64,000 bases of DNA from Escherichia phage kvi. The translations under genes were made by a program, and so were the position numbers. Location: sequence record MN850615.1. The stretch is one strand, 5' to 3'. Numbering within the stretch: position 1 is the first letter of the stretch; each line of letters begins with the position of its first letter. A model generated the notes under the pieces. The model was not told where the DNA came from. It worked only from the letters and a program-made list of their open reading frames with translations, and did not search any database. This document shows positions 57,039-59,228 of this stretch, in pieces.

Positions 57039-57230
57039 TTAGATTCCGGCGATCCTGCATAGAGTTCTTGTATTAGCACCAATAAGGATAGCATTAACGA
57101 CAACCATTCCCCAATCAACCCACGGATTATTATAAATGCTAAATCCGTTTGTTAAGCCAAAGACAAGCATTCCGGTACACATACTCAGAGCAATAATCAA
57201 CATCACGGTAAAACCAAATGCAAATTTCAT
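57039..57230 (-). CDS. small membrane protein (63 aa)
   Basis: two hydrophobic segments; adjacent to endolysin. Confidence 0.4.
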   Translation of the reverse strand: MKFAFGFTVMLIIALSMCTGMLVFGLTNGFSIYNNPWVDWGMVVVNAILIGANTRTLCRIAGI

Positions 57231-57231
57231 A

Positions 57232-57498
57232 TTATTTTCCTTTTCTCTGTTTACGTTTATAAAAGTAATACATTACCTCATCGCGTCCGGTGATCCAACA
57301 TGCTATGGCAGTAAACAGGTTTACAATTCCCAACACACCTACTGACGCGGCGCTGTCAACAGACATAGGAACAGTAAAGGCCATAGCTAACATAGCAACG
57401 CCACAAATGACATTAAGCACCATTATAATAAGACCGAAGAAAACCATTGTCAATCCTCCGACACAAGAAAACCAACAATCACGCCAGTGATAAGACAT
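57232..57498 (-). CDS. small membrane protein (88 aa)
   Basis: hydrophobic segments followed by a basic C-terminus (…KRKQRKGK). Confidence 0.4.
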   Translation of the reverse strand: MSYHWRDCWFSCVGGLTMVFFGLIIMVLNVICGVAMLAMAFTVPMSVDSAASVGVLGIVNLFTAIACWITGRDEVMYYFYKRKQRKGK

Positions 57499-57641
57499 GA
57501 TGCGCCGCTAATAAGACAACCCGCGCCAAGTGATTCCCACCAGATCAGAGAAGCGACAATAACACAGAATCCCCATACTACCGCAATCACAACATAGGCA
57601 AGGGTCGCCCAAAACATATATTTGTTCATAATAAATCCCAT
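57450..57641 (-). CDS. small membrane protein (63 aa)
   Basis: hydrophobic throughout. Confidence 0.35.
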   Translation of the reverse strand: MGFIMNKYMFWATLAYVVIAVVWGFCVIVASLIWWESLGAGCLISGASCLITGVIVGFLVSED

Positions 57642-57814
57642 TCACCAAACAAATAAGAAAAAAGCCATATCAACAGAAACGAGGCAATTGATCCGGCAAG
57701 CAAAATGATATTAGAGAATCCGCCGTCTATCCAGGCGACAAAACAGAATACGCCAGTATAGAAGCATAAACCCATTACAAAGCATACTATAAGCAACCAT
57801 AGACAAAACGCCAT
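57626..57814 (-). CDS. small membrane protein (62 aa)
   Basis: hydrophobic; GGAGGG RBS. Confidence 0.4.
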   Translation of the reverse strand: MAFCLWLLIVCFVMGLCFYTGVFCFVAWIDGGFSNIILLAGSIASFLLIWLFSYLFGEWDLL

Positions 57815-57875
57815 AGAAAGCCCTCCAGTGAGCTAATTTAGTGCGGGTAGTACATTACCCTACCCGTATTGTTAA

Positions 57876-58034
57876 TCATCGCAGAGCTTCTTCTAGCGCG
57901 ATCCCAAACCATCCACAAACAACGCCCATACAGACAGCTACAAGAAGATTCATTCTCTCTTTAGGGATCATTGCAATCATAACAACAACCATACAGAAAG
58001 CCATTACCATTGAAGTTAACATTTGTTCAACCAT
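57876..58034 (-). CDS. small membrane protein (52 aa)
   Basis: MVEQMLTSMVMAFCMVVVMIAMIP…; below track cutoff. Confidence 0.25.
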   Translation of the reverse strand: MVEQMLTSMVMAFCMVVVMIAMIPKERMNLLVAVCMGVVCGWFGIALEEALR

Positions 58035-58036
58035 TA

Positions 58037-58375
58037 TCACACCTTTAAAGTCATAGACGCATAAACATTAATGCCAGGCCAGTTAGGATCGCAATTATAC
58101 TCAACATCCCACAAATAAAGCGGTTTAGATGTATCAGCCAAGTTTTTAAAATCTTCTACCCACATTTCAAGGCTATATGATGGATAAACTAGGCTATCAT
58201 ATCCGCCGTAACGTTGGCCTACTGGTCGGTCAGTAAAAACTACCTCAAGATCCGGTAATTCTTTTTCAAGGATAACCGCCAGCGCATAAATCAGACGGTC
58301 TTCCTTGTTACGCTGCCGAAGGACCGTTGTCAGTTGGTTTTTCTGGTTCACTAGCAAGCACCTCCACATTTTCAC
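58037..58375 (-). CDS. hypothetical protein (112 aa)
   Basis: minus-strand ORF; overlaps the upstream ORF by ~68 nt, start uncertain. Confidence 0.4.
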   Translation of the reverse strand: MKMWRCLLVNQKNQLTTVLRQRNKEDRLIYALAVILEKELPDLEVVFTDRPVGQRYGGYDSLVYPSYSLEMWVEDFKNLADTSKPLYLWDVEYNCDPNWPGINVYASMTLKV

Positions 58376-58628
58376 AGAATGAAATTTTCACAGACACAAT
58401 TTTACCATAAGTGAAGAATGAATATACATTATCGAGATATTCAACGTCACCTACAATCACATCAAACTGCGGATCAGCAACCGCCGCAACATATTCTACC
58501 AGTTCATCAAGAGAATGCAACTTAATTTCATCAATTCGGCTGTATTTGGTTGCATCTTTGATTTTAAAACCACGTTCTTTCAGCTTATCAATTAGAATTT
58601 CACGCGGAGTTTCAAACAGTTTGCTCAT
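58308..58628 (-). CDS. hypothetical protein (106 aa)
   Basis: ATG at 58628 with GAGGA RBS. Confidence 0.45.
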   Translation of the reverse strand: MSKLFETPREILIDKLKERGFKIKDATKYSRIDEIKLHSLDELVEYVAAVADPQFDVIVGDVEYLDNVYSFFTYGKIVSVKISFCENVEVLASEPEKPTDNGPSAA

Positions 58629-58649
58629 AATATAATCCTCACATTAAAT

Positions 58650-58850
58650 CTAAAATTTGTTAACGACGAATTGCATAATTAGACTAATCACAAACATTGC
58701 AAACCAAGTATAAATGCAACAGATAAAAGCTACATACAATTCAATCTGGTCAGAGAATACACCGGGTAAAAGCATTAGCAAAATAACAACAGTAAAGACG
58801 CTAGCGATACCCGCAACAAAACCAATATCATTTTTACTAATCGTCATCAA
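58650..58850 (-). CDS. small membrane protein (66 aa)
   Basis: two hydrophobic segments. Confidence 0.4.
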   Translation of the reverse strand: MMTISKNDIGFVAGIASVFTVVILLMLLPGVFSDQIELYVAFICCIYTWFAMFVISLIMQFVVNKF

Positions 58851-59056
58851 GTCACCGTTTTGTAAAGAAACACAATAAAATCCAAGACAAGAAAGACAGT
58901 GTAAATGATCATCGTCAAGACAGTAAACACTGTCAAATTTTCATCGTTAGTTAATTCATAGTCGCCCATCCATACAATCACAAGATATAGCATTGAAAGA
59001 ATGGAAGCACCTACGAAGTTAAAAAACATATTCTTGAGCGTCATATTAACAACCAT
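58847..59056 (-). CDS. small membrane protein (69 aa)
   Basis: two hydrophobic segments. Confidence 0.4.
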   Translation of the reverse strand: MVVNMTLKNMFFNFVGASILSMLYLVIVWMGDYELTNDENLTVFTVLTMIIYTVFLVLDFIVFLYKTVT

Positions 59057-59228
59057 CGCGGCTTAAGTCAACAGCAATTGCATACAGCATAATGAATATG
59101 CTAGCAGATCCGAGAATCAATACACCCTCACATTTTGAAACTCGCTCATCAAAATGTAACATTATCCATCCGAGGATGTTAAAGGCGCAGACCGCGCCTA
59201 TGTTCGCTAACCAATTAATCTTTTTCAT
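59046..59228 (-). CDS. small membrane protein (60 aa)
   Basis: two hydrophobic segments. Confidence 0.4.
   Translation of the reverse strand: MKKINWLANIGAVCAFNILGWIMLHFDERVSKCEGVLILGSASIFIMLYAIAVDLSRDGC

Follow-up and report, generated by a model that had tools for sequence, protein, structure and literature searches.

In phage T4, the interval between the lysozyme gene e and gene 57B is a plastic part of the early region, with the gene order regB, vs.3-vs.8, denV, ipII, ipIII, e, nudE, e.2-e.8, rnaC/D with the tRNA genes, ipI, 57B, 57A, 1 and 3. It includes four open reading frames (ORFs) coding for small transmembrane (TM) proteins, e.2, e.3, e.4 and trna.4 (61 residues, two TM segments), set among nudE, the tRNA genes and ipI. 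Two other T4 proteins, Imm and Sp, perform superinfection exclusion (PMC7677548), and they are thought to aid the secondary-adsorption signal and to shield the envelope during lysis inhibition (PMC6832632). The T4 dmd gene is located in a documented anti-toxin-antitoxin island that also holds sp (PMC9391042). Here, we analysed a 64,000-nt stretch of DNA (hereafter the window) from Escherichia phage kvi (record MN850615.1), in which a dense array of small membrane ORFs precedes the gene of an M15-type endolysin.

A 5.7-kb query taken at this island matched 58 phage records at 90-99.5% identity, all from the genus Krischvirus (RB49, Phi1, JSE, GEC-3S and relatives, with E. coli or Shigella as hosts). 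By these matches, the window is part of the genome of a Krischvirus (RB49/Phi1/GEC-3S-like) T4-type coliphage. Between 55 and 64 kb, the minus strand carries every gene. The order in Krischvirus is regB ... nrdC.11, vs.6, vs.8, the endolysin gene, ~22 small ORFs including dmd, 57B, 57A, 1 and 3, and comparison with T4 places the endolysin in the 'e' slot and the small ORFs in the plastic e-57B interval. The region is best explained as the Krischvirus version of that interval, in which ~22 genus-specific accessory genes replace the T4 occupants. The same endolysin-57B interval thus harbours small TM ORFs in both phages, but Krischvirus has 14 of them, has no tRNAs and shares no homology with the T4 occupants. 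ARAGORN detected no tRNA gene in the whole window (1-64000), including the interval syntenic to the tRNA clusters of T4 and of Proteus phage PM2, and Rfam and tRNA scans of the 55-64 kb region gave nothing above noise. The Krischvirus interval is wholly refilled with protein-coding ORFs. The 56-62 kb segment is also the sole run of 2-kb bins in the window with a clearly positive plus-strand AT skew (+0.05 to +0.10, compared with ~0 or negative values in most other bins), i.e. with a T-rich coding strand.

We labelled the ORFs B to X, of which B-F, I-K, Q-U and W code for hydrophobic proteins, and G, H, L-P, dmd and X for soluble ones. The original prediction had placed eight small hydrophobic ORFs at 57039-58034 and 58650-59228 and more at 60798-62078. 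B-F and I-K were found exactly at the first two locations, and six more (Q, R, S, T, U and W), with dmd embedded among them, at the third. Ratios of nonsynonymous to synonymous polymorphism (pN/pS) were computed over 10 genomes (the window plus nine more from Krischvirus). Listed below are the membrane ORFs, together with the two soluble ORFs that separate the first two groups.

57039-57230, minus strand: ORF B (RB49 ORF103), membrane protein of 63 residues; grand average of hydropathy (GRAVY) 1.12; published TMHMM segments 5-27 and 37-54; pN/pS 0.23
57232-57447, minus strand: ORF C (ORF104), two-TM hairpin of 71 residues with a basic C-terminal tail; pN/pS 0.07
57450-57629, minus strand: ORF D (ORF105), two-TM hairpin of 59 residues; pN/pS 0.22
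57626-57814, minus strand: ORF E (ORF106), two-TM hairpin of 62 residues; pN/pS 0.53
57876-58034, minus strand: ORF F (ORF107), two-TM hairpin of 52 residues; pN/pS 0.24
58037-58351 and 58308-58628, minus strand: ORFs G and H, soluble proteins of ~105 residues each, function not assigned; no TM segments, genus-specific PHROGs
58650-58847, minus strand: ORF I, two-TM hairpin by hydropathy and published TMHMM (I to K have 60-65 residues)
58847-59044, minus strand: ORF J, two-TM hairpin on the same evidence and in the same size range
59046-59228, minus strand: ORF K, two-TM hairpin on the same evidence and in the same size range
60798-61016, minus strand: ORF Q, small membrane protein downstream of dmd (pN/pS 0.10-0.50 for Q to U)
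61013-61195, minus strand: ORF R, small membrane protein downstream of dmd
61192-61416, minus strand: ORF S, small membrane protein downstream of dmd
61413-61523, minus strand: ORF T, small membrane protein of 36 residues downstream of dmd
61520-61717, minus strand: ORF U, small membrane protein downstream of dmd
61920-62078, minus strand: ORF W (ORF124), Gly/Ala/Thr-rich two-TM protein of 52 residues, first gene after the promoter at 62138-62110; pN/pS 0.09

The sizes of the 14 membrane proteins range from 36 to 74 residues, most of them having 52-74 and T having 36, and the GRAVY values of the eight proteins B-F and I-K, computed on the longest ORFs, range from 0.77 to 1.76. Kyte-Doolittle profiles showed two TM segments in 12 of the 14; T has one, and B has one clear segment, with a second one found in the published TMHMM analysis of RB49. 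Based on these profiles, charge analysis and the published TMHMM data (topology prediction having been proposed as a check in the original prediction), most of the proteins are predicted to be helical hairpins with both termini in the cytoplasm (N-in/C-in). Following the positive-inside rule, the loops predicted to face the periplasm are ~6-18 residues long and mostly acidic. The ORFs between the groups are not all hydrophobic, as G and H (58037-58628) and L-P (59237-60521) code for soluble proteins.

In RB49, 13 of the 20 novel ORFs with TM helices fall in ORF103-124 (TMHMM; Nolan et al. 2006, PMC1524935, Additional file 2), and of the 19 small TM ORFs found in a crude whole-genome scan of Phi1, at least 11 lie within 5 kb of its 164-kb genome. 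The clustering of TM ORFs exceeds chance. GenBank annotates the membrane ORFs as hypothetical or 'putative membrane protein', and our literature searches turned up neither functional studies of them, or of membrane proteins in Krischvirus, nor any discussion of their clustering.

We then searched for relatives of the 14 proteins. All-against-all BLASTP and Smith-Waterman comparisons with full and windowed shuffles revealed no paralogy among them beyond chance over 91 comparisons; a C-terminal motif apparently shared by C and S failed the shuffle test. When the 14 proteins were concatenated and searched with tblastn against 50,697 phage records, only the 58 Krischvirus records matched. In a word-indexed search of 5.8 billion proteins, B, Q and W had only matches of at least 82% identity (at least 86% for B), and an exhaustive HMMER search with C over 1.84 billion representatives gave one 79%-identical cluster and two artefacts. 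No Pfam family scored above threshold for any of the 14 ORFs, each of which hits its own small PHROG without function, in line with the earlier statement that they cannot be assigned from sequence. As far as detectable similarity goes, these searches show the 14 proteins to be restricted to the genus and unrelated to one another. Their soluble neighbours match LPD25, DUF7421, DUF5490 and, weakly, Gp30.7, and M also matches the broader phrog_2084. AlphaFold2 models of G and H from single sequences had mean predicted local distance difference test (pLDDT) scores of 68 and 58, and Foldseek found no match to them in the PDB at E<=0.001.

The 14 frames are intact in the 10 genomes, except for an allelic replacement of I and J, single-base indels of J in two genomes and an extra stop codon in S of SSG23. 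Their pN/pS values range from 0.07 to 0.53, compared with 0.06 for the endolysin gene and 0.11 for vs.8. A divergent 175-kb metagenomic contig has kept the whole array in order, at 36-99% amino acid identity. Nonsynonymous-to-synonymous substitution ratios (dN/dS) relative to this contig are between 0.05 and 0.47, except for T, whose value of 0.78 stems from very few substitutions. C, S and W go down to 0.05-0.10 in at least one comparison, like the endolysin gene. Gene junctions are tight or overlapping, and Shine-Dalgarno (SD)-like sequences precede most start codons. Together, the intact frames, low pN/pS values, tight junctions and SD-like sequences show, at the level of comparative genomics, that the small ORFs are real genes under purifying selection.

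The array also undergoes local change. In JSE, Makalu_002 and SSG23, I and J are swapped for a single membrane allele 35% identical to I. This exchange (58650-59044 in the window; L007:5141-5335, L010:5138-5338 and L011:5137-5337 in our set of loci) is an allelic cassette swap within otherwise 97%-identical DNA. In JK32, E and F are partially duplicated in tandem, and Skers has an additional F fragment. Relative to the divergent contig, synonymous divergence (dS) ranges from 0.05 to >2 between adjacent genes, and such strong differences between neighbours point to mosaic recombination in the array. Allelic replacement, local duplications and mosaic dS are as expected of arms-race accessory genes.

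Regarding the timing of expression, five putative early promoters, which match the strong early consensus of T4-type phages, and three intrinsic terminators were identified. The Pe designations are the early-promoter predictions made by Nolan et al. with a hidden Markov model in RB49 (PMC1524935); window coordinates correspond to RB49 + 1902.

62591, minus strand: early promoter, 11/12 sigma-70 match, RB49 Pe:60694
62138-62110, minus strand: early promoter, TTGACA-17-TAAGAT, 10/12 match, RB49 Pe:60244
60596-60568, minus strand: early promoter driving P, 11/12 match, RB49 Pe:58699
60327-60299, minus strand: early promoter driving O-N-M, 11/12 match, RB49 Pe:58430
59634-59606, minus strand: early promoter upstream of L, TTGACA-17-CATAAT, 11/12 match, RB49 Pe:57746 (score 37.4), annotated in GEC-3S
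62629-62609 and 60649-60628, minus strand: intrinsic terminators, from a sequence scan
55511-55487, minus strand: intrinsic terminator, the first such site past the endolysin gene (after vs.6), annotated in GEC-3S and Makalu_002

The four promoters with 11/12 matches read TTGACA-17-CATAAT or TACAAT. Four of the five, i.e. all except that at 60327, match the annotation of GEC-3S, in which one is placed upstream of ORF P instead. From this arrangement, we infer transcription units consisting of X; of W-dmd-U-T-S-R-Q up to the terminator; of P; of O-N-M; and of L-K-J-I-H-G-F-E-D-C-B-endolysin-vs.8-small ORF-vs.6, with 55511-55487, before which no terminator-like site occurs, as the likely end of this long early operon. 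No late promoter was predicted in RB49 between 48756 (rI) and 64518 (PMC1524935), and the single exact TATAAATA late-promoter box of the 55-64 kb region (60799-60806) falls within the last codons and the stop codon of Q. As early promoters lie upstream of them and no late promoter is predicted, the membrane ORFs are predicted early genes. A further sigma-70-like site, TTGACA-17-TATTAT (11/12 match; 57425-57453, minus strand), overlaps the D/C junction and is absent from the published early-promoter predictions of RB49; it would yield a short transcript covering part of C, then B and the endolysin gene.

The gene that follows the array codes for a well-known enzyme.

56621-57010, minus strand: endolysin, EndoRB49-type M15 zinc L-alanoyl-D-glutamate peptidase of 129 residues (Pfam and PDB matches)
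57000-57045, minus strand: RNA hairpin pairing the endolysin SD sequence and AUG codon; minimum free energy (MFE) -12.9 kcal/mol, z -1.8

The endolysin matches Pfam Peptidase_M15_4 (E 4.4e-12, exceeding the gathering score), has the SRHLHGFAVD and DGPHLQL motifs with the H-x6-D ... H zinc site, and is encoded between vs.8 and the 57B-57A-1-3 block. Thus, as had been noted from the sequence, it is an M15 zinc peptidase rather than a T4 e-type lysozyme. Its sequence matches PDB 23ri_A at 100% and 8q2g_A (peptidoglycan L-alanyl-D-glutamate endopeptidase) at ~96% identity, with remoter matches to Serratia ChiX and the T5 endolysin. EndoRB49 (RB49 NP_891673.1) has been purified, assayed and mutagenised, and it is a Zn-dependent L-alanoyl-D-glutamate peptidase without Ca2+ regulation, in contrast with EndoT5 (PMC10487532); its peptidoglycan-lytic activity was demonstrated by experiment (PMC10487532, PMC8140593). 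The window enzyme shares the zinc-ligand motifs of the EndoRB49/EndoT5 family (MEROPS M15C; Pfam Peptidase_M15_4) and the conserved Trp109 studied in EndoRB49, of which it is a strain variant with nothing of substance different. It is an already known, biochemically characterised and structurally solved enzyme, which the original prediction had not recognised; it adds nothing new, and its family has matches in 1,258 phage records. An M15 endolysin also occupies this slot in PM2 (Bragavirus) and RB16 (Pseudotevenvirus), with soluble neighbours and no TM array. Joint acquisition of the array and the M15 endolysin was rejected in view of these two phages.

The spacer between B and the endolysin gene is 28 nt long and invariant in the 10 genomes. 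The 5' arm of the hairpin over the endolysin ribosome-binding site (RBS) contains a late-promoter-like box, TCTAAATA (57036-57043), with one mismatch to the T4 late-promoter box; it is retained in the divergent L017. A transcript initiating ~6 nt past this box would miss the 5' arm. Gene e of T4 has the same layout, with two TATAAATA boxes followed by a hairpin over GGAGGUAUUAUG, and early e transcripts are untranslatable owing to that hairpin. The M15 endolysin gene of PM2 has a hairpin of -14.0 kcal/mol (z -4.5), closely preceded by AATAAATA, and that of RB16 has one of -24 kcal/mol (z -4.35); the Krischvirus hairpin is the weakest of the four. Such a hairpin thus recurs at the endolysin slot of T4 (lysozyme e), PM2, RB16 and Krischvirus, the latter three coding for M15 peptidases. 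Though statistically weak alone, the Krischvirus hairpin is credible because four genera have such a structure at this slot. Outside the window, these hairpins lie at L013:4998-5035, L015:6469-6511 and L016:6439-6501 in our set of loci; they pair the SD sequence and/or the start codon, with a late-promoter-like box in or just before the 5' arm. These features suggest that translation of the endolysin is kept separate from that of the early operon bearing the membrane ORFs: the endolysin gene, at the distal end of that operon, would stay masked in early read-through transcripts, as T4 e does. The regulatory layout seems to have been kept though the enzyme was swapped for an unrelated one.

What the membrane proteins might do was considered in the light of three soluble neighbours.

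59237-59563, minus strand: ORF L, free-standing LPD25 (large polyvalent-protein-associated domain 25) protein of 108 residues (Pfam, E 3.2e-14)
61707-61910, minus strand: dmd, antitoxin against RnlA/LsoA (Pfam Dmd, E 7.8e-15; 45% identical to T4 Dmd)
62636-63106, minus strand: 57B, i.e. the Acb1 phosphodiesterase that counters the cyclic oligonucleotide-based anti-phage signalling system (CBASS), at the upstream boundary of the island (Pfam Acb1 PF23474, E 1.5e-51)

ORF L heads the early operon that holds eight membrane ORFs and the endolysin gene, with the promoter directly upstream. Most Krischvirus records label 57B as '57B / RNA ligase', a product name that is outdated given the Acb1 match.

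Searches of the whole Phi1 genome with tblastn and phmmer revealed no homologue of T4 Imm, Sp, TifA, AdfA, e.2-e.4 or trna.4. For Imm, tblastn returned nothing at E<=1, the best phmmer --max hits (E 0.16) were on spurious frames, and there was no Pfam Imm match. The best match to Sp (E 0.07-0.19) lies inside gene 41, and the 14 ORFs are all devoid of periplasmic domains. The genus has nonetheless retained rI and the gp5 tail lysozyme (Phi1). Since Imm and Sp are undetected while rI and gp5 lysozyme are kept, non-homologous replacements of Imm and Sp are to be expected in Krischvirus. An early small inner-membrane protein would be the right kind of molecule for exclusion, which makes the exclusion option of the original prediction more plausible than a role in lysis. 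The Krischvirus hairpins share with T4 Imm (83 residues, two TM segments, early) their size class, predicted membrane location and early promoter context. However, they have no sequence similarity to it, T4 imm lies between genes 42 and 43 rather than in the e-57B interval, and the inter-helix loop of Imm is basic whereas most of the Krischvirus loops are acidic. As for the T4 dmd-tifA-sp-adfA island, dmd is co-located with small early counter-defence and exclusion genes in T4, but in Krischvirus it has moved into the e-57B interval.

On balance, we lean towards the view that the 14 ORFs code for accessory proteins of the inner membrane that are made early and condition the envelope; at least one would serve in exclusion, and others would act against membrane defences or tune host membrane machines. 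These mini-proteins would be made in the first minutes of infection and inserted into the inner membrane, where they would condition the envelope of the infected cell. At least one may block DNA entry of superinfecting phages, substituting for the missing Imm and Sp, and this protein might likewise provide the signal on which rI-dependent lysis inhibition relies. Further members of the set might inhibit or alter host proteins embedded in the membrane, e.g. abortive-infection effectors, which would fit with Acb1, Dmd and LPD25 as neighbours. Confidence in any specific assignment of a function to an ORF is low.

Several points weigh against this view. Guilt by association with Acb1 and Dmd is a weak argument because T4-type early regions mix many functions, and the absence of imm and sp homologues does not make these ORFs their replacements. 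The early timing is a prediction from promoters only. A classic arms-race interface would not be expected to show pN/pS values so far below 1 and no trace of positive selection, as found here. Other small TM ORFs are found elsewhere in the genome, such as RB49 ORF018 beside gene 61, and one function common to fourteen different proteins is unlikely. In Krischvirus, the stability of the RBS hairpin barely exceeds that of shuffled sequences (z -1.8), and the promoter-like box TCTAAATA within it is mismatched. Lastly, C, Q and S look generically like class II holins, with two TM segments and a basic tail, and Q starts with MKM.

An alternative that we consider unlikely, though it fits part of the data, is that the mini-proteins are modulators of host physiology that tune inner-membrane machines (transporters, FtsH-type proteases, the divisome or respiratory complexes) rather than acting in exclusion or anti-defence. 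Bacterial small membrane proteins bind and tune such machines, and the phage proteins resemble these regulators, as they are generally known, in size, single-hairpin form and minimal soluble parts; predicted early expression and purifying selection without signs of diversification also fit. Nevertheless, restriction to a single genus and allelic replacement are harder to reconcile with conserved host targets, no known modulator is linked to these proteins by sequence, and the neighbours are counter-defence genes.

A more ambitious version of the envelope-conditioning view, which we regard as quite doubtful, sees in the island a genus-specific arsenal of membrane mini-proteins that evolved independently, perhaps de novo, each plugging or disarming a different membrane threat. 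Targets may include the DNA-entry route of superinfecting phages and the TM effectors of abortive-infection systems, such as those of CBASS, Pycsar and retrons, RexB-like channels, and Zorya. To our knowledge, although no literature search was aimed at it, anti-defence by transmembrane mini-proteins is not a described class. If true, such an arsenal would be the membrane-level counterpart of the soluble counter-defence genes coding for Acb1 and Dmd.

A role as holins, pinholins or antiholins that serve a horizontally acquired M15 endolysin, beside or instead of the T holin, is very unlikely for any of the hairpins close to the endolysin gene (B, C) or of those resembling holins (C, Q, S). B and C directly adjoin the endolysin gene; C, Q and S combine the features mentioned above with predicted N-in/C-in topology and tails that are strongly basic; and holins are so diverse that absent homology is not decisive. 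Class II holins and pinholins, such as S21 of phage 21, similarly have ~70 residues, two TM segments, N-in/C-in topology and, like C, Q and S, a charged tail, and some adjoin endolysins. However, small size, at least one TM segment and a charged C-terminal tail are generic features that do not discriminate. No Pfam holin family reaches threshold in the 14 ORFs, the best match being that of C to Phage_holin_3_5 (E 0.029, 15 bits for a cut-off of 27), a weak, sub-threshold hit that speaks for this alternative. No homologue of B or C is found beside any endolysin outside the genus, and in PM2 and RB16, where an endolysin of this family fills the e slot, the neighbouring genes code for soluble proteins. 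In addition, a complete T4-type set of lysis genes is encoded elsewhere. In Phi1, holin gene t is at 154900-155556 (after gene 37), and thus the t locus, whose comparison had been proposed, is apart from the island; the spanin genes pseT.3/pseT.2 are at 128614-129386 and rI at 48088-48390, and rIIA and rIIB are present. The window itself contains rI.

50292-50594, minus strand: rI antiholin, outside the island, with its own TATAAATA late promoter at 50628-50635 (Pfam Antiholin, E 1.6e-23)

Late expression in a lysis cassette with the endolysin, as expected of a holin, is not what is predicted for these ORFs, which are behind early promoters, with no late promoter predicted and with a masked endolysin RBS in transcripts reading through from them. 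A true holin made early would defeat its own purpose. As to spanins, the 14 ORFs have no periplasmic domain and no convincing lipobox, and the short periplasmic loops (~6-18 residues) exclude both spanin-like and Sp-like architectures. The earlier suggestion of holin, antiholin or spanin components is therefore not favoured on gene content: t, the spanins and rI are elsewhere, the units appear to be early, and no spanin architecture is present. With t, the spanins, rI and rIIA/B elsewhere, early promoters, the RBS hairpin, and PM2 and RB16 endolysins devoid of an array, the membrane ORFs are probably not part of the lysis apparatus.

Finally, the idea that these T-rich frames are of recent origin, perhaps born de novo, have little or no function and are carried as cheap and harmless in a plastic region has in its favour the lack of homologues outside the genus in 5.8 billion proteins and by exhaustive HMMER, the lack of paralogy, the T-rich coding strand, and the local duplications and replacements, but it is most improbable in view of frames intact in 10 genomes and a divergent relative, pN/pS clearly below 1 (with C, S and W down to 0.05-0.10), tight or overlapping junctions, and SD-like sequences before most starts.

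The island harbours one more feature, located between Q and the next early promoter.

60620-60797, minus strand: candidate structured non-coding RNA, 178-nt segment (RNA of ~170 nt), based on folding and conservation

This segment has an MFE of -64.4 kcal/mol (z -4.05), a value reached by none of 200 shuffled sequences. Its sequence identity within the genus is 97.4-100%, and a single apical loop accounts for all the variation. It is preceded by the exact TATAAATA box at 60799-60806 and ends in the intrinsic terminator at 60649-60628. It has no Rfam or tRNA match and no similarity to T4 rnaC or rnaD. We consider it as a candidate late-expressed small RNA, located where T4 has its tRNAs and rnaC/rnaD. 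Two of these observations may be useful more widely: the recurrence of RBS-masking hairpins at the endolysin slot, and an unannotated conserved RNA that has a late-promoter box to itself.

The TM helices of these ORFs were tabulated already in 2006 (PMC1524935), and the ORFs fit the known plastic early regions of T4-type phages. About two-thirds of the small membrane ORFs that are new in this therapeutically used genus lie in the island (13 of the 20 novel TM-containing ORFs of RB49), and its fourteen very short genes lend themselves to easy one-by-one testing. In a genus without detectable T4 exclusion genes, it is thus the obvious place to seek non-homologous analogues of Imm and Sp and membrane counter-defence factors.

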